This document shows, piece by piece, positions 1 to 5,612 of a DNA stretch of 5,612 nt (position 1 is its first letter; every line of letters starts with the position of its first letter). The notes under the pieces are model-generated. The model saw only the letters and a program-made list of their open reading frames with translations, had not been told where the DNA came from and did no database searches. The DNA is from a virus. The stretch is taken from positions 1 to 5,612 of IMG/VR virus record IMGVR_UViG_3300045988_001123. The stretch is one strand, 5' to 3'. A program made the position numbers and the translations under genes.

Positions 1-55
1 ACTGGTACAATGCAGCGCAAAGCTGGCAGCAGATGCTCAGTTCTACACAAATGAC
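1..55. repeat. Terminal redundancy copy 1 (identical to 5558-5612), an assembly signature of a circular genome
   Basis: Base-by-base comparison: actggtacaatgcagcgcaaagctggcagcagatgctcagttctacacaaatgac occurs at both ends of the window. Confidence 0.97.
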
Positions 56-200
56 GCCTTACGGACTGCAAAAGGCCTTAACAGAAATCGGAGAAGATAC
101 AAGCAAAGCAATTGACAAAAACGTACCAAAAGGAAGCGAAAAACACAAAAGTAAGGCCGGAGTAACGCACGGCGGAAAAGGCGGTGATATTAAAAAGTGA
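1..200 (+). CDS. VP2 minor capsid / DNA pilot protein, C-terminal part (continuation of 4921-5612 across the circular junction; first full codon at 3; stop TGA 198-200)
   Basis: The frame is open from the window start (W Y N A A Q S W Q Q M L S S T Q M T P Y G L Q K A L T E I G E D T S K ... G G D I K K stop). It is in phase with the ORF that runs off the 3' end once the 55-nt redundancy is collapsed. Total length is 278 aa. Confidence 0.85.
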   Translation, partial: WYNAAQSWQQMLSSTQMTPYGLQKALTEIGEDTSKAIDKNVPKGSEKHKSKAGVTHGGKGGDIKK

Positions 201-1216
201 GTTGTTACAAACCGTTAATACGGCTGTACAACCCGGAAAACAAAGACATAAGCGGGCGGGTGTATTCACTTGCCCGCTTTTCTGAAATATCGGGAAAACA
301 GCTCAAATATGAAGATTTGATGTACAGAAAAGACGTAATGTTGATACCATGCGGACAGTGCATCGGATGCAGAATAAGACAAAGAGAAGACTGGGCAACA
401 CGTATAGAATTAGAAGCACGAGACTATCCGAAAGAAGAAGTGTGGTTTATCACACTAACATATGACGATGACCATGTACCAGGAATGATTGTAAAAACGG
501 GTGAAATCATGCGAAAAGTACAATACGTCTGGAAACCGGGAGAGAAGCGCCCTGAAAGCGTGCAAACGTTACTGTATACTGACGTTCAAAAGTTCTTAAA
601 ACGTCTCAGGAAAGCTAATAGGGGCAAACTACGCTATTTTGTGGCGGGAGAGTATGGAGAACAGACAGCAAGGCCGCATTACCACATGATACTGTATGGA
701 TGGCAACCAACAGACCTGAAACACCTGTACAAGATACAGCACAACGGATACTTCACAAGCCAATGGCTAGCAAACCTATGGGACATGGGTCAAATACAGA
801 TAGCACAAGCAGTGCCAGAAACATATAGATATGTTGCAGGGTACGTCACAAAAAAAATGTACGAGATAGACGGCCAAAAAGCAAACGCATACTATGAGCT
901 AGGGCAACAAAAGCCTTTTGCATGTATGAGTCTCAAGCCAGGCTTAGGAGACCACTATTATCAAGAACACAAAGCGGAAATCTGGAAACAAGGATATATC
1001 CAATGCACAAACGGCAAGCGAGCACAAATTCCGCGTTATTATGAAAAAATGATGGAAGCCGAAAACCCACAAAGATTGTGGAGAATTAAACAGAACAGAC
1101 AAGCAGCAGCAATAGCAGAAAACCGACTAAAGTATGAAAACACAGACTTTGCAGAACAGTGCAAGACAAAAGAAAGGGTGATAAAGAAGCAAATGAAGAA
1201 GAGAGGGACAATCTAA
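197..1216 (+). CDS. VP4 replication initiation protein (HUH rolling-circle endonuclease, Microviridae A/VP4 family)
   Basis: 339-aa ORF with a GTG start. Extended SD AAGGCGGTGAT at 178-188 lies 8 nt upstream. The N-terminus MSCYKP...IPCGQCIGCR matches the typical gokushovirus VP4. Motif 1 is WFITLTYDD, the HUH motif PHYHMILYG has codons 677-685, and the double-tyrosine motif is YVAGYVTKK (Tyr codons 830-832 and 842-844; compare phiX174 A YVAKYVNKK). Confidence 0.92.
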   Translation: MSCYKPLIRLYNPENKDISGRVYSLARFSEISGKQLKYEDLMYRKDVMLIPCGQCIGCRIRQREDWATRIELEARDYPKEEVWFITLTYDDDHVPGMIVKTGEIMRKVQYVWKPGEKRPESVQTLLYTDVQKFLKRLRKANRGKLRYFVAGEYGEQTARPHYHMILYGWQPTDLKHLYKIQHNGYFTSQWLANLWDMGQIQIAQAVPETYRYVAGYVTKKMYEIDGQKANAYYELGQQKPFACMSLKPGLGDHYYQEHKAEIWKQGYIQCTNGKRAQIPRYYEKMMEAENPQRLWRIKQNRQAAAIAENRLKYENTDFAEQCKTKERVIKKQMKKRGTI

Positions 1217-1237
1217 CGGTATCACTAACGGTGTCAC
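1214..1237 (+). repeat. Tandem 12-mer TAACGGTATCAC / TAACGGTGTCAC spanning the VP4 stop codon
   Basis: Two adjacent 12-nt units differ at one position. The second contains GGTGtCACC, a 4+4 inverted repeat. Confidence 0.8.
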
Positions 1238-1239
1238 CT

Positions 1240-1276
1240 AGCCCAGTACCTATCAAGTAAGGTACTGGGCTTTTGT
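1240..1276 (+). terminator. Rho-independent terminator downstream of VP4
   Basis: Perfect stem aGCCCAGTACC (1240-1250) pairs with GGTACTGGGCt (1261-1271). The loop is about 8-10 nt and is followed by TTTTGT. It lies 24 nt after the VP4 stop. Confidence 0.8.
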
Positions 1277-1327
1277 CGTCTAAAGGCTCCATATATCAAA
1301 CTATTCAGTCTATCAAATTACTAAATC

Positions 1328-1381
1328 TATAGCGCACGTGCGCACACGCGCGATAGCGCGCACGCGCGCACGCGCGCTATA
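1328..1381. repeat. GC-rich imperfect palindrome / long hairpin with two alternating purine-pyrimidine tracts
   Basis: Pairing position i with 2709-i gives 21 Watson-Crick pairs out of 25, in blocks of 8 bp, 7 bp, an isolated pair at 1345/1364, and 5 bp, with mismatches at 1336, 1344, 1346 and 1347. The tetraloop is ATAG (1353-1356). The perfect 12-bp palindrome GCGCACGTGCGC lies at 1332-1343. Strict Pu/Py alternation runs over 1332-1352 (21 nt) and 1356-1377 (22 nt). The element is flanked by TATA...TATA. Confidence 0.9.
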
Positions 1382-1476
1382 ATATTAACTTGTTGTAGAA
1401 GTAGTAGTAGGCAATGTGGAAAAGTTGATAAGTGCTAAAATTTAACGTTAAAGCGTAAATAAAAAGCAAAAAACAG

Positions 1477-1588
1477 TGTTGAAAGATTTGTTGAAAATTT
1501 GTTGAAATGTTGAAAGTTCGTCAAAATGACGGAAATCATTGTGCAATATTTTGTTGAAAACCTGTTGAAACTGTTAAAACTGTTGAAA
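1477..1588 (+). repeat. Iteron-like array: 8 direct copies of TGTTGAAA in two clusters
   Basis: Perfect copies start at 1477, 1489, 1500, 1508, 1552, 1563 and 1581. The variant TGTTAAAA starts at 1572. Within-cluster spacing is 8-12 nt. The clusters are separated by a 36-nt spacer containing the palindrome CGTCAaaaTGACG (1519-1531). Degenerate copies may lie upstream (tgttgtagaa 1391-1400, agttgata 1423-1430). Confidence 0.9.
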
Positions 1589-1680
1589 ACGCGCACAGCG
1601 CTAAAAATGAATGGATTAGCCGAGTTCCGCATGCGCTCCACACGGCAAGGCGCTAAAGCGCCATTCAAACCAAAAAACAA

Positions 1681-1709
1681 TTGACGTGTGGCAAAATATA
1701 TGATACAAT
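1681..1709 (+). promoter_or_regulatory. Sigma70/SigA-type promoter with extended -10
   Basis: The -35 is TTGACG (1681-1686). The spacer is 17 nt and ends in TGa. The -10 is TACAAT (1704-1709). The promoter sits about 25 nt upstream of the first gene of the long + strand gene block. Confidence 0.7.
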
Positions 1710-1734
1710 ACACAATAGAAAGCGAGGGAGCAAG

Positions 1735-2124
1735 ATGATTAAAAGCTACATCATGGACACAGACGCAAACGAAAAAGTAGGTCAACACTTTAAAGTGCGA
1801 GAATTTGCATGCAAAGATGGCTCGCAAGTCGTGTTCATCGACAGCTATTTAGTGTCCATTCTGGATATCCTCAGAAACCAAGTCGGTAAGCCAGTATACA
1901 TAAACAGCGGATACAGGACACCGACAAGGAATAAAAAGGTAGGCGGTGCAAAGTACTCATACCACATGCGAGGAATGGCAGCAGACATCCGGATTGAAGG
2001 CATGACCGCAAAAGAAATTGCCGACAAACTGAATAAAATCATTCCGTCTGGATGCGGCATTATCGTGTACAACACATGGGTACACATTGACACACGTACC
2101 AAAACCTACAGAAAGGGGGTATAA
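1735..2124 (+). CDS. Zn-dependent peptidoglycan peptidase, M15 / LAS superfamily (Peptidase_M15_3-like), putative endolysin
   Basis: 129 aa from ATG 1735, with SD GAGGGAG at 1724-1730. Motifs seen: FKVREFACKDG, SGYRTPTRNKKVGGAKYSYHMRGMAAD and WVHIDTR. These give the H-x6-D...H zinc triad (H77 codon 1963-1965, D84, H117). No signal peptide or TM segment is visible. Confidence 0.8.
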   Translation: MIKSYIMDTDANEKVGQHFKVREFACKDGSQVVFIDSYLVSILDILRNQVGKPVYINSGYRTPTRNKKVGGAKYSYHMRGMAADIRIEGMTAKEIADKLNKIIPSGCGIIVYNTWVHIDTRTKTYRKGV

Positions 2125-2125
2125 G

Positions 2126-2248
2126 ATGGCGCTTATTTCCATTAAAGACGTCAAGCAGGCAATTCGTCTAATGATGCAGATTTTGGAAAAGCTTGACGAA
2201 ATCTATCACGCATTGCATGACAGCATCAACGAAAACGAAAAGGAGTAA
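2126..2248 (+). CDS. Hypothetical 40-aa protein (below the ORF-track cutoff)
   Basis: ATG 2126 lies 1 nt after the peptidase stop, with SD AAGGGGG at 2113-2119 (6-nt spacing). The translation is MALISIKDVKQAIRLMMQILEKLDEIYHALHDSINENEKE, an amphipathic helix with an acidic tail. Its last codons carry the SD of the next gene. Confidence 0.5.
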   Translation: MALISIKDVKQAIRLMMQILEKLDEIYHALHDSINENEKE

Positions 2249-2252
2249 AGCC

Positions 2253-2480
2253 ATGATGCACAAAACATGGAACGTAAGAGACCAGACCAAAGAAGAACTG
2301 GAAAAGCTACTCGAGCGAAAATACAAAGAAATCGATAGCAATTACAAAATGGTTAAAAAGGTGTCAAACATCGAAGACGCTAAAAAGCTCATAGATGAAA
2401 TTTGGCAAATGAAAAACTTTGCAAATGCTATAGAAATGGAACTAATCAGAAGGGAGTATAACGATGGCACAGCATCGTAA
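2253..2480 (+). CDS. Hypothetical 75-aa charged, probably helical/coiled-coil protein
   Basis: ATG 2253 is preceded by AAGGAG (2240-2245, 7-nt spacing). The track's TTG 2193 start has no SD and would overlap the upstream ORF. The sequence MMHKTWNVRDQTKEELEKLLERKYKEIDSNYKM... carries no motif I recognise. Confidence 0.6.
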   Translation: MMHKTWNVRDQTKEELEKLLERKYKEIDSNYKMVKKVSNIEDAKKLIDEIWQMKNFANAIEMELIRREYNDGTAS

Positions 2481-2586
2481 GAAGATGAACGGCGCAAAAG
2501 ACCGCCGAATGTTCAACGTAACAGCACGAAAGACCAAAACGATTAACCTCAGCCAAAAGCCCATGCGCGGCGGAATTCGGCTGTAA
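2464..2586 (+). CDS. Small basic DNA-binding/packaging protein (gokushovirus VP8 / phiX174 J-like)
   Basis: The ORF is 40 aa and below the track cutoff. ATG 2464 has SD AGGGAG at 2451-2456 (7-nt spacing). The translation MAQHRKKMNGAKDRRMFNVTARKTKTINLSQKPMRGGIRL is Lys/Arg-rich. Its C-terminal PMRGGIRL resembles the RGG(I/R)R(F/L) ending I recall for Chlamydia-phage and SpV4 ORF8 proteins. Confidence 0.7.
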   Translation: MAQHRKKMNGAKDRRMFNVTARKTKTINLSQKPMRGGIRL

Positions 2587-2602
2587 GAGAAAGGAAAGAA
2601 CA

Positions 2603-2842
2603 ATGGAACATCTGTACTATGGAGTCTACGACAGCGTGGCAAAATGCTATGCATGGGTAGGTGAGAGCAAAAACAACGGAACCTTTGCACGGATGTGCGA
2701 AACGATGCAGAAGGACAAGAGCACGTTCATCGGGCAATCCCCGACCGATTATGTGGGCTACAGACTGGCGTCCTTCAACGATGAAACCGGCGAGTTTTAC
2801 AACGGCAAAGAAAAAGTGTGGGAGGGCAAGCCGAATGAATAA
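2603..2842 (+). CDS. Conserved gokushovirus small non-structural protein (VP5-like)
   Basis: 79 aa, with the purine-rich SD-like AAAGGAAAG at 2590-2598. The pattern YGVYDSVAKCY...NNGTFARMC...SPTDYVGYRLASFNDETGEF matches the Y/FxVxDxxA...A-R-F...DY-L...G-FDD-TG pattern I recall for the small protein encoded between VP4 and VP3 in gokushoviruses. This is recalled from memory, not searched. Confidence 0.6.
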   Translation: MEHLYYGVYDSVAKCYAWVGESKNNGTFARMCETMQKDKSTFIGQSPTDYVGYRLASFNDETGEFYNGKEKVWEGKPNE

Positions 2843-3233
2843 ACGATACGAGGAAGGGCGAGAGCCCTTCTTTTCAAATTCAGGCGAAAAGCTGCAAAAA
2901 CAATACGTCTGGACAAAGGACGAAAAAGGCCAAGAAAAGCTGCTGGAAACCGAGCCAATCGACATCCAGCAGGAAATTGAAAGCTATTCGGATGAATGTG
3001 ATATCAAAAGCATTGTCCGAAAAGCAAGTTTTGACCCACAGTTTCTGAAAAGTCTGTCGGAGGGAGCATTAAACGATACATACACGGATATTACGGAATT
3101 TCCGCAGAACATTCACGAGTACCATCGAATGGTAGCGACCGCACAGGCAAACGCCATGAAACTCGAAGAACTGCAAAAAATGGCAGCAGCAGAACCGGAA
3201 GCAAAGGAAGAAGAAAAGGAGGAAGAAAAGTGA
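2835..3233 (+). CDS. VP3 internal scaffolding protein
   Basis: 132 aa from ATG 2835, with SD GGGAGGG at 2820-2826. The start overlaps the upstream gene by 8 nt (ATGAATAA). The gene lies immediately upstream of VP1. The motif IESYSDECDIKSIVRK...YTDITEFPQNIHEY is typical of the gokushovirus scaffold. The tail is acidic (EEEKEEEK). Confidence 0.75.
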   Translation: MNKRYEEGREPFFSNSGEKLQKQYVWTKDEKGQEKLLETEPIDIQQEIESYSDECDIKSIVRKASFDPQFLKSLSEGALNDTYTDITEFPQNIHEYHRMVATAQANAMKLEELQKMAAAEPEAKEEEKEEEK

Positions 3234-4882
3234 ATCGAAACAACGAAAGACACTTTAATCAGATTCCAGAAATGAAAGCAAGTCGAACGCGGTTCAACCG
3301 CGACCAGACAATTTTAACAACGTTCGATTCCGGCAAGCTGATTCCATTCTATGTTGACGAGGTATTACCGGGCGATACCTTCAACGTAAATACAGCAGCA
3401 ATTGTTCGAATGAGTACACCGAAGTATCCGGTGATGGACGATGCATTCATTGACTTCTACTACTTCTATTGTCCAAACCGAATCCTATGGGATAATTTCA
3501 AGCAGTTCATGGGAGAAGTAGAGCAAACACCGTGGATGCCGAAAAAAGACTATAAAGTGCCCATGATCGTCATCAACGGAAAAAAAGAAAATCCGGAACC
3601 GTATGAAGGATCAATCCTAGATTACATGGGAGTCCCAACGAAAATTGAAAACATTTTTAAAGTAAACGCACTACCAATCAGAGCATATGTAAAAATCTGG
3701 AATGAATTTTTCAGAGATGAAAACGTAGATAATGCAGCAACCATCAAAACCGATGACAGCAACATAAATTATCAAGACGGCAAAGAAAGCGAAAGCGATA
3801 TAGACCAAATCTTACTAAAAGCAATAGGCGGTGGCAGATGCTTACCAGTAAACAAATTCCATGACTACTTCACAAGCTGCCTACCTTATCCTCAGCGCGG
3901 GCCAGCAGTAACACTGCCGATGGAAGGTAATGCACCAGTATTTGGATATAGCGTCTTCCAAGATAACGTCAAAACAACAGATAAAATAATCCTAAACCAG
4001 CCGTGGCCAGCAAACGGCACAACGGACTTTTCAAACGCGGAAAAAGCGGGAAAACTGACAGGAAAAGGCACAGTCGAAGGAGGTAGCTACATCGCACAAG
4101 CATTCCTAAAAGCAGACCTCAGCAATGTAACCGCAGCAACCATCAACGACTTAAGAAAAGCCGTAGCAGTACAGCAGTACTACGAAGCGCTCGCACGAGG
4201 CGGCAGCCGATACCGCGAACAGGTACAAGCACTGTGGAATGTAACTATCAGCGACAAAACGGTACAGATCCCAGAATACCTGGGCGGCGGCAGATACCAC
4301 ATCAATATCAACCAAATCGTGCAGACAGCGGAAAACGATAAGTCACCGCTGGGCGAAACTGGTGCAATGTCAGTGACGCCGATAAACGAAAGCTCTTTTA
4401 CCAAATCTTTTGAAGAGCATGGATTTGTAATTGGTGTCTGTTGTGTGCGACACAATCGCAGTTACCAGCAAGGCTTGGAGCGTTTCTGGAGTCGAGAAGA
4501 CAGACTGGACTACTATGTACCGCAGTTTGCAAATCTAGGCGAACAGCCCGTAAAGAAAAAGGAAATCATGTTGACCGGCACGACAGCGGACGAAGAAACG
4601 TTCGGTTATCAGGAGGCCTGGGCGGACTACCGAATGAAACCAAACCGGGTAAGCGGCCTCATGCGAAGCAACGCAACAGGCACGTTGGACTTCTGGCACT
4701 ACGCAGACAATTATTCAACCGTACCAACACTGTCGCAAGGCTGGATGCAAGAAGGCAAGACCGAAATTGCACGCACACTCGTCGTGCAGAATGAGCCGCA
4801 ATTTTTCGGCGCTATCCGAGTAGCAAACAAAACCACAAGACGGATGCCGTTGTACAGTGTACCGGGCTTGTACAAACTGTAA
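3230..4882 (+). CDS. VP1 major capsid protein (Microviridae F/VP1 family)
   Basis: 550 aa with a GTG start and SD AAGGAGG at 3216-3222 (7-nt spacing). Hallmarks seen: HFNQIP...RTRFNRDQTILTTFDSGKLIPFYVDEVLPGDTF, HDYFTSCLPYPQRG, INDLRKA...ARGGSRY and IPEYLGGG. Confidence 0.95.
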   Translation: MNRNNERHFNQIPEMKASRTRFNRDQTILTTFDSGKLIPFYVDEVLPGDTFNVNTAAIVRMSTPKYPVMDDAFIDFYYFYCPNRILWDNFKQFMGEVEQTPWMPKKDYKVPMIVINGKKENPEPYEGSILDYMGVPTKIENIFKVNALPIRAYVKIWNEFFRDENVDNAATIKTDDSNINYQDGKESESDIDQILLKAIGGGRCLPVNKFHDYFTSCLPYPQRGPAVTLPMEGNAPVFGYSVFQDNVKTTDKIILNQPWPANGTTDFSNAEKAGKLTGKGTVEGGSYIAQAFLKADLSNVTAATINDLRKAVAVQQYYEALARGGSRYREQVQALWNVTISDKTVQIPEYLGGGRYHININQIVQTAENDKSPLGETGAMSVTPINESSFTKSFEEHGFVIGVCCVRHNRSYQQGLERFWSREDRLDYYVPQFANLGEQPVKKKEIMLTGTTADEETFGYQEAWADYRMKPNRVSGLMRSNATGTLDFWHYADNYSTVPTLSQGWMQEGKTEIARTLVVQNEPQFFGAIRVANKTTRRMPLYSVPGLYKL

Positions 4883-4885
4883 GAA

Positions 4886-4891
4886 AGGAGG
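4886..4891 (+). promoter_or_regulatory. Shine-Dalgarno AGGAGG lying 29 nt upstream of the VP2 ATG, separated from it by a hairpin
   Basis: This is the only SD-like element between the VP1 stop (4880-4882) and ATG 4921. The 8 nt directly before the ATG are attttaa-like and have no SD. Confidence 0.55.
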
Positions 4892-4892
4892 A

Positions 4893-4918
4893 AGCCCGGA
4901 GAAATCCGGGCTATTTTT
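4893..4918 (+). terminator. Rho-independent (probably leaky) terminator between VP1 and VP2
   Basis: The stem is AGCCCGG (4893-4899) pairing with CCGGGCT (4906-4912). The loop is agaaat, followed by aTTTTT (4913-4918). Confidence 0.7.
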
Positions 4919-4920
4919 AA

Positions 4921-5612
4921 ATGAGTGGATTATCTGGACTCTTAACAGCACTAAACGTAGCGGGAAACGTAGCGAACACAATCGGAACTTTTGCAGGAGC
5001 AGCTAAAAACATAGCCGGAGCGTTTGGTGGATGGGGGCAAACAGGCAATAGCCAAAGTAGCGGCGGCAGCACAAGCCAAGGCGGCGGACACTCCGAAAGC
5101 GGAAGTCAATCGGGCACCAACGTGCAGCAAGTCAATGACTGGTTAAAACAGGCATACGCATACCAAGGACAAGAAGCAGCCATGCAAGGCAAATACAACA
5201 GCCAGAGTATGTTAAAACAGATGGGCTATAACACGCTACAAGCAATCATGCAAGGCGTATACAACCACATCGAAAACAGTGTAGCAATGAACTACAACAG
5301 CGCAGAAGCACTAGCAAACAGGGACTGGCAAGAGCACATGTCAAACACAGCGTACCAGCGAGCCGTTGAGGACATGAAAAAAGCAGGGATTAACCCTATC
5401 TTAGCATTCGCAAACGGCGGCGCAAGCACACCGGGAGGAAGTGCAGGAACAATCAGTGGAGCAAGTATGGGACTTGCAAGCAGCAGCGCACTAGGAGTAA
5501 GCAGAAGCGGAGGATTTGTGCCTAACGCATACGAAAGCAACAGTTGGAGCAAAAGCGACTGGTACAATGCAGCGCAAAGCTGGCAGCAGATGCTCAGTTC
5601 TACACAAATGAC
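4921..5612 (+). CDS. VP2 minor capsid / DNA pilot protein, N-terminal part (runs off the window and continues at 1-200)
   Basis: ATG 4921 is the first possible start, because an in-frame TAA lies at 4918-4920. I translated the frame by hand and found no stop to 5612. It has a hydrophobic Gly/Ala-rich N-terminus, a G/S/Q-rich low-complexity segment, and the hallmark NTAYQRAVEDMKKAGINPILAF. Confidence 0.88.
   Translation, partial: MSGLSGLLTALNVAGNVANTIGTFAGAAKNIAGAFGGWGQTGNSQSSGGSTSQGGGHSESGSQSGTNVQQVNDWLKQAYAYQGQEAAMQGKYNSQSMLKQMGYNTLQAIMQGVYNHIENSVAMNYNSAEALANRDWQEHMSNTAYQRAVEDMKKAGINPILAFANGGASTPGGSAGTISGASMGLASSSALGVSRSGGFVPNAYESNSWSKSDWYNAAQSWQQMLSSTQM
5558..5612. repeat. Terminal redundancy copy 2 (identical to 1-55)
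   Basis: Same 55-mer as 1-55. The VP2 reading frame is continuous through it. Confidence 0.97.

Follow-up and report, generated by a model that had tools for sequence, protein, structure and literature searches.

A conserved hairpin at the VP1-VP2 junction of a gut gokushovirus as a candidate leaky terminator and bridge of a split ribosome-binding site

The stretch of DNA analyzed here (IMG/VR virus record IMGVR_UViG_3300045988_001123, positions 1 to 5,612, referred to below as the window) comes from a gokushovirus and carries, between the genes for the major capsid protein VP1 and the DNA pilot protein VP2, a small GC-rich hairpin flanked by a long Shine-Dalgarno (SD) sequence on one side and by the VP2 start codon on the other. 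Judged by comparison with related genomes, this hairpin module is a real, strongly selected RNA-sense element: it recurs at the same junction throughout a VP1 clade, its stem covaries in a strand-specific manner, its spacing to the start codon is constrained, and it arose once and was not lost afterward. The best-supported explanation, at a probability of about 55%, is that one hairpin plays two roles, as a leaky intrinsic terminator behind VP1 and as the bridge of a split ribosome-binding site (RBS) for VP2, as a first-pass annotation made from the letters of the window had proposed. Either role taken by itself appears likely, and the two together may shift the VP1:VP2 ratio.

The junction runs in the order ctgTAA GAAAGGAGG A AGCCCGGA GAAA TCCGGGCT ATTTTTAA ATG, and comprises the following features.

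3230..4882, + strand: VP1 major capsid gene, 550 amino acids (aa), stop codon TAA at 4880-4882; Pfam Phage_F (E = 7.6e-139) and phrog_514 major head protein.
4882..4891, + strand: extended SD AGAAAGGAGG, with its AGGAGG core at 4886-4891; it overlaps the VP1 stop codon by this one base at its 5' end.
4893..4912, + strand: hairpin AGCCCGGA-GAAA-UCCGGGCU, with 8 bp (6 of them G-C) and a GAAA tetraloop, as folded by RNAfold.
4913..4920, + strand: tail AUUUUUAA, with a terminator-like U tract at 4914-4918; unpaired spacer to the AUG, ending in an in-frame TAA at 4918-4920.
4921..5612, + strand: VP2 DNA pilot protein gene, running from ATG 4921 across the circular junction to TGA 198-200, 278 aa.

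The first-pass annotation held that VP2 can start only at ATG 4921, and this is borne out. The in-frame TAA abuts the ATG, the next in-frame start codon (GTG 5122) lies 67 codons downstream, the ATG is conserved in every relative, and residue 1 of the predicted protein falls on position 1 of the phrog_8742 pilot protein profile (E = 2.9e-112; residues 1-230 on profile positions 1-233). Its statement that AGGAGG, 29 nucleotides (nt) away, is the sole usable SD also holds, as there is no SD-like 4-mer in the window's unpaired tail, although the SD is longer than was claimed. Of five gene starts examined (Rep, orf2464, the VP5-like gene, VP1, and VP2), that of VP2 has the longest match: the 10 nt of AGAAAGGAGG are complementary to a 16S rRNA tail assumed to end in ...CCUCCUUUCU-3'. 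The only other GGAG (4898-4901) lies 19 nt from the AUG, where the hairpin sequesters it in its upper stem and loop, and subclades whose loops are of the CAAAA type do not conserve it.

The coordinates first given for the hairpin stand, but the 7-bp stem and 6-nt loop do not: A4900 and U4905 pair as well, which gives 8 bp closed by the GAAA loop. RNAfold places the hairpin in both the minimum free energy (MFE) and the centroid structure, with stem bases unpaired at a probability below 0.1; calculated for the hairpin by itself, the free energy is about -16 kcal/mol. With the stem folded, the linear SD-to-AUG distance of 29 nt shrinks to 1 + 8 = 9 unpaired nt. This arithmetic is correct, but to call the spacing ideal was an overstatement, because the width of the helix base adds to it and GGAGG pairs weakly with the U run. 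Rfam contains no family that matches at or near the element.

Evidence that the module is conserved comes first from a VP1-based scan of IMG/VR, which returned 80 loci with VP1 proteins of 72-87% aa identity. All 79 loci with a locatable VP1 end and VP2 start have a VP1-VP2 spacer of 38-40 nt with the same module (the remaining locus, L056, is without a VP2 start). Two more distant subclades keep the architecture with other stems: GAAAGGGGGAA-GCCCGGGG-CAAAA-CCCCGGGC-UAUUUU(AUU)-AUG where VP1 is ~55% identical to that of the window, and GAAAGGAGGA-AGCCCCGC-AAAA-GCGGGGCU-AUUUUUGA-AUG where it is ~42-48% identical. The module is found in 146 of 153 loci with a recognizable VP1 end, the other seven being outgroups; in other words, every sampled genome of the VP1 clade (146/146) carries it, down to a VP1 identity of ~42% and with divergent VP2 N termini. 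A covariance model built from 88 distinct versions of the module was run against 88 module-bearing loci and matched each exactly once, every time on the + strand and at this junction, whereas five outgroup loci gave no match. Across the 146 relatives, the GAAAGGRGG core of the SD is nearly invariant. The module as a whole is conserved about as well as codon positions 1 and 2 of the VP1 C terminus and far better than the N-terminal coding region of VP2, in a comparison whose columns are blurred by variable stem boundaries.

Several relatives have additional sequence between the VP1 stop codon and the module. In some second-subclade genomes (L103:2911-3010, L114, L144, L098, L145, L132, and L142) this is a noncoding insertion of ~100 nt made up of an AT-rich inverted segment and three tandem copies of a CAGCTG-centered palindrome (TCAGCTGAGnnnGTCAGCTGAGGCCTCAGCTGA), with the SD-hairpin-AUG unit intact. 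In L089:2860-2916 and L087, the last ~14 nt of VP1, including the stop codon, are duplicated in tandem (TAA ATGACCATCACTAA ...) just upstream of the SD module. A single genome (L121:2877-2947) has a 71-nt poly(A)-rich insertion (…AAACAAAAAAAAAAAAGG…) in the same place.

The first-pass annotation had suggested checking relatives for conserved SD-hairpin-AUG geometry with covariation, and both were found. Pairs were counted on a covariance-model alignment, which replaced a MAFFT alignment in which the stem arms were out of register between subclades. In this alignment, 95.6% of cells are standard pairs, and five of the nine stem pairs have changed on both sides (C-G to G-C, C-G to U-A, G-C to A-U, and A-U to G-C). 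All five covariation measures exceed those of every shuffle (0/500 match). A covariance-model alignment leans toward structure, but two independent lines give the same compensatory changes: the covariation signal collapses when the 3' partners are slid by at least one column, and the raw stems show the same swaps (GCCCGG/CCGGGC, GGCCGG/CCGGCC, GCCGGG/CCCGGC, GCCUGG/CCAGGC, GCCCCGC/GCGGGGC, and GACCCGGG/CCCGGGUC). It is these relatives, with the module in 146/146 genomes and covariation unmatched in 500 shuffles, that set the element above chance, because the fold of the window by itself is only modestly better than chance (z = -2.3; 3 of 200 shuffles equally stable).

The direction of selection can be read from the wobble pairs. 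G.U intermediates occur with the G on either arm. Because each of them would become an A.C mismatch on the opposite strand, selection on the fold acts on the mRNA-sense strand. Covariation cannot, however, tell RNA from + strand single-stranded DNA (ssDNA), which leaves room for a DNA-level function, with the ssDNA hairpin serving as a signal for complementary-strand priming, packaging, or Rep recognition. The site, just past the major capsid gene, resembles that in G4 and phiX174, where the F-G spacer holds origin-related hairpins. Nonetheless, we consider such a function very improbable. The element is just ~20 nt long and is rigidly tied to the SD on one flank and to the VP2 AUG on the other, and its loop, which is not conserved, offers no constant motif for nicking or recognition. 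Loops differ without restraint in both sequence and length (GAAA, CAAAA, CAAUA, CGACA, UCAAAAC, UUUU, and GUC), which speaks against a nick site, an origin, or a protein-binding loop, and these readings were rejected.

If the hairpin acts on RNA, its position suggests that it bridges a split RBS. In the 146 genomes, the SD core and the AUG stand 28-39 nt apart in linear sequence (mode, 29-31), the tail is 6-10 nt long in 143, and the bridged, unpaired spacing is 6-11 nt in 141 (mode, 9); none of the 146 tails contains an SD-like 4-mer. The window thus combines the sequence features of a split initiation region of the T4 type: a distance above ~20 nt, a bridging hairpin, no alternative SD or start codon, and a covarying stem. 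Outgroup junctions that lack the hairpin are also informative. These read TAA-GGGGGUGAGAAU-AUG, TAA-GGGGGAAACCAAGA-AUG, and TAA-GGGGGUGCAAA-AUG (type TAA-GGGGG...-ATG), with the SD directly after the VP1 stop codon and 6-9 nt from the AUG. As this equals the bridged spacing of the hairpin clade, it looks as if an ordinary RBS had received the hairpin and its U run within its spacer. Furthermore, in second-subclade genomes with 70-120 nt of unrelated sequence after the VP1 stop codon, the SD has stayed next to the hairpin and the whole unit next to the VP2 AUG, from which it follows that the SD belongs with VP2 and not with VP1 termination.

These observations bear on the alternative that the hairpin is only a terminator or a stabilizer of the VP1 3' end, with VP2 starting independently of the SD on an A/U-rich leader or through some other form of coupling. 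The tail UAUUUUUAAAUG is indeed A/U-rich and unstructured, as such a leader would be. However, the SD is the genome's best anti-SD match and is nearly invariant, it keeps company with the hairpin and not with the VP1 stop codon where insertions have occurred, and tail length is held to 6-10 nt. Other genes of the phage also use a spaced SD, with the anti-SD matches of VP1, Rep, and the VP5-like open reading frame (ORF) lying 7-8 nt before their start codons. We therefore find this alternative improbable.

Evidence for the second role, termination, lies in the combination of a short-looped, GC-rich stem above the 5-bp minimum (here 8 pairs, 6 of them G-C, and a 4-nt loop) and a U-rich tract immediately downstream. 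Among the 57 distinct variants, every one has 4-6 U residues in the 8 nt following the stem (5 in the window), these always adjoin the stem, and tail positions 2-5 are U in 132-144 of the 146 genomes. Where tails are longer, the extra residues are A and lie at the AUG end. This polarity, with U by the stem and A by the AUG, would not be needed by a spacer alone. In a simple scan of the genome, only two terminator-like sites were found on the + strand, 4893-4918 and 1240-1271, which suggests a single long transcription unit, attenuated internally and closed by a final terminator. The hairpin after Rep (1240-1276), with 12 bp followed by TTTGTCGTCT, is stronger than the one between VP1 and VP2. 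A VP2 promoter inside VP1 was considered and rejected, as promoter-like matches show no excess (9, versus 8.4 +/- 2.9 in shuffles).

The terminator reading of the first-pass annotation is backed by analogy, in that hairpins alike in size, stability, and U content stand at this junction in sister gokushoviruses, though in the ordinary order of hairpin, SD, and AUG. We sampled two sister lineages, around MG945207 and MT135282, for a total of 55 distinct junctions, including one locus without a downstream ORF. Twenty-two of these have an SD only, 30 have the ordinary order of stop codon, GC hairpin, U tract, GAAAGGAG, 7-9 nt, and AUG, and none has the split layout. In their medians, canonical and split hairpins are alike in span (23 versus 22 nt), stem length (9 versus 8 bp), and free energy (-19.5 versus -17.7 kcal/mol), and their U content is comparable. 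Terminators behind VP1 are therefore recurrent in gut gokushoviruses, and the window clade carries the sister-type element, moved to the other side of the SD.

That split and canonical hairpins cannot be told apart by size, free energy, or U content is what a terminator-only function would lead one to expect. The evolutionary histories of the two layouts differ, though. A FastTree phylogeny of VP1 was built from 146 representatives obtained by clustering at 88% identity. In it, the 100 representatives with the split layout group together in one clade, which a single change explains (SH-like support, 89) and within which no loss occurs across 22.3 substitutions per site of branch length. The 43 other tips, in contrast, show at least 9 switches between hairpin-then-SD and SD-only over ~19 substitutions per site, and this outside rate, applied within the split clade, would predict about ten changes. 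Among sister loci L170-L303, genomes with VP1 proteins at least 88% identical differ in whether the canonical terminator is present, and the at least 9 gains or losses indicate that the VP1-VP2 terminator turns over quickly in these lineages. A hairpin that is never lost in one clade and labile in its sisters speaks against termination alone. The contrast is as expected if the hairpin were dispensable in the canonical order and indispensable between SD and AUG, because decay of the stem in the split layout would strand the SD ~30 nt from the start codon.

A number of points weigh against the dual role. The U tract is short, with 5 U residues preceded by an A, and being shorter than in strong terminators it would be expected to make a leaky site. 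The distance from the VP1 stop codon to the stem is 10 nt here and in 88 of the 146 relatives, while hairpins that fold behind a terminating ribosome are said to require 10-15 nt (PMC4824070); 10 nt is the lower edge of this range, and termination may be weak or absent. In the partition function, G.U pairs join GGAGG to the U run and leave the SD unpaired with a probability of ~0.2, and by this model the structure could dampen or throttle initiation and not promote it. The dependence of VP2 on its SD is judged only from the phage's other genes. In addition, most of the relatives and contigs were drawn from one large metagenome data set, the VP1 tree is approximate with long branches flagged, and layouts were classified by rule.

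Some of these same observations would fit an element that is purely translational, a split or deliberately weakened RBS whose U-rich tail is a plain spacer that polymerase reads through; in one variant, VP2 is possibly throttled by the weak SD:U-run pairing. Consistent with this, the tract has just 4-6 U residues, with an A ahead of them, the stem lies 10 nt past the stop codon, a place at which termination can be repressed by a terminating ribosome (PMC4824070), and in the ensemble the SD spends most of its time paired to the U run. On the other hand, a mere spacer needs no U next to the stem and A next to the AUG, a terminator at this junction is recurrent in sister lineages, and the site is one of just two terminator-like sites on the + strand of the genome. 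We regard a solely translational role as doubtful. A 9-10-bp SD:anti-SD duplex should easily displace the weak GGAGG:U-run helix, and the terminator is probably leaky, which would fit the need for expression of VP2 and Rep downstream, and might be very weak.

Under the dual-role explanation, the polycistronic late mRNA of this gut gokushovirus would carry one RNA element with two uses. RNA polymerase leaving VP1 would encounter the GC hairpin and U run as a leaky Rho-independent terminator, such that VP1-only transcripts would outnumber those reaching VP2 and Rep, and the hairpin would cap the 3' end of the terminated VP1 mRNA. On read-through mRNA, the hairpin would stay folded with its 20 nt looped out, so that just ~9 unpaired nt and the width of the helix base would separate the very strong SD AGAAAGGAGG from the VP2 AUG. 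The start codon would then be within reach of a 30S subunit bound at the SD, as in T4 genes 38 and 25.

It is also conceivable, if rather speculative and in our estimate improbable, that the module mediates a termination-reinitiation hand-over, in which the small subunit released from VP1 would be caught by the 10-nt SD and swung over the hairpin to land on the VP2 AUG. The SD overlaps the VP1 stop codon by that codon's final base, and a ribosome paused on this codon would have its leading edge exactly where the hairpin starts. If such a hand-over occurs, VP2 output would be a fixed fraction of VP1 translation multiplied by terminator read-through, and a single 45-nt module would set capsid-to-pilot stoichiometry at both levels.

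By analogy, the element in the window resembles a T4 gene 25/38 split region combined with a leaky intercistronic terminator of the phiX174 type. The T4 cases are described by Gold 1988, Nivinskas et al. 1999, and Malys and Nivinskas 2009 (reviewed in PMC3014915). There, a hairpin reduces the SD distance from 22 to 5 nt for gene 38 and from 27 to 11 nt for gene 25, stem-destabilizing mutations lower initiation, and conservation is confined to one clade (PMC3014915, PMC7297116). The parallels with the window are close: an SD too distant in linear terms (29 nt here, versus 22 and 27), a hairpin that cuts this to a workable distance (9 nt, versus 5 and 11), a location at an intercistronic junction of late or structural phage genes, and conservation in one clade with absence from distant relatives. 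In contrast to T4, the window belongs to the ssDNA Microviridae (Gokushovirinae), probably with another kind of host, and its bridging hairpin looks fully like an intrinsic terminator, a GC stem with a U run right after the upstream gene. Also, the T4 cases have mutagenesis, reporters, and dimethyl sulfate (DMS) probing behind them, and the case made here is a comparative one.

In phiX174, weak terminators TJ, TF, and TG follow genes J, F, and G, and only ~18% of transcription remains once the structural genes have been passed (Logel and Jaschke, bioRxiv 10.1101/2020.03.05.979765). The likeness lies in weak Rho-independent terminators placed after microvirus capsid genes, with less mRNA for the later genes (the H pilot and A Rep genes). 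It is a distant subfamily, however, compared here by description and not by junction sequence; the descriptions consulted do not put the following gene's SD 5' of any of these terminator hairpins, and termination that was measured there is predicted here. The sister gokushoviruses (for example, MG945207 and MT135282) share with the window the junction, the type of GC hairpin and U tract, and an extended SD (GAAAGGAG); unlike in the window, their hairpin precedes the SD, stands outside the RBS, and has been repeatedly gained and lost. A cellular parallel is provided by clostridial ABC-importer operons, in which internal terminators control subunit stoichiometry (PMC9045158). In these too, a stem-loop lies just 3' of the gene for the most abundant product, termination is partial, and the upstream transcript is stabilized; the U-rich tail often pairs with 5' purines (PMC9045158). 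These operons differ in having longer intergenic regions and in that no downstream RBS role is described for them (PMC9045158). We found no description of the element in Microviridae in the searchable literature.

The genomic setting of the module is as follows. The 5,612-nt window holds a complete circular microvirus genome of 5,557 nt plus a 55-nt terminal overlap. Positions 1-55 were verified as an exact direct repeat of 5558-5612, which implies circularity and a VP2 gene that crosses the junction. The closest GenBank records are gut gokushoviruses from human and pig (66-82% nucleotide identity), and a VP1 scan of bacterial genome contigs found no prophage relative. All recognized genes are on the + strand; besides VP1 and VP2, they are these.

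197-1216, + strand: Rep/VP4.
1681-2124, + strand: M15 peptidase.
2603-2842, + strand: VP5-like DNA-binding protein.
Ending at 3233, + strand: scaffold VP3.

Rep and VP1 each start with a GTG within a GTGA stop/start overlap with the preceding gene (192-200 and 3226-3233), with an SD 7-8 nt upstream in each case. Among the structural genes of the genome, VP2 is the only one with a free-standing intergenic spacer.

Taken together, hairpin-bridged RBSs have been studied experimentally in very few cases, those of T4 genes 38 and 25, and the same solution now appears, on comparative grounds, in an unrelated family of ssDNA phages. Here the arrangement has been kept without one loss over a deep clade of ~100 distinct lineages, and the bridge is a hairpin of the terminator type. 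For annotation, this means that gene callers needing an SD within ~15 nt will misscore these VP2 starts. The series from SD only, through terminator then SD, to SD-terminator-AUG constitutes a natural comparative system for how a disposable regulatory hairpin becomes essential. If the dual role is true, one 20-nt fold would govern both the amount of VP2/Rep mRNA and the translatability of that mRNA, and this would be an economical route to a 60:12-type capsid stoichiometry in a 5.5-kb genome.

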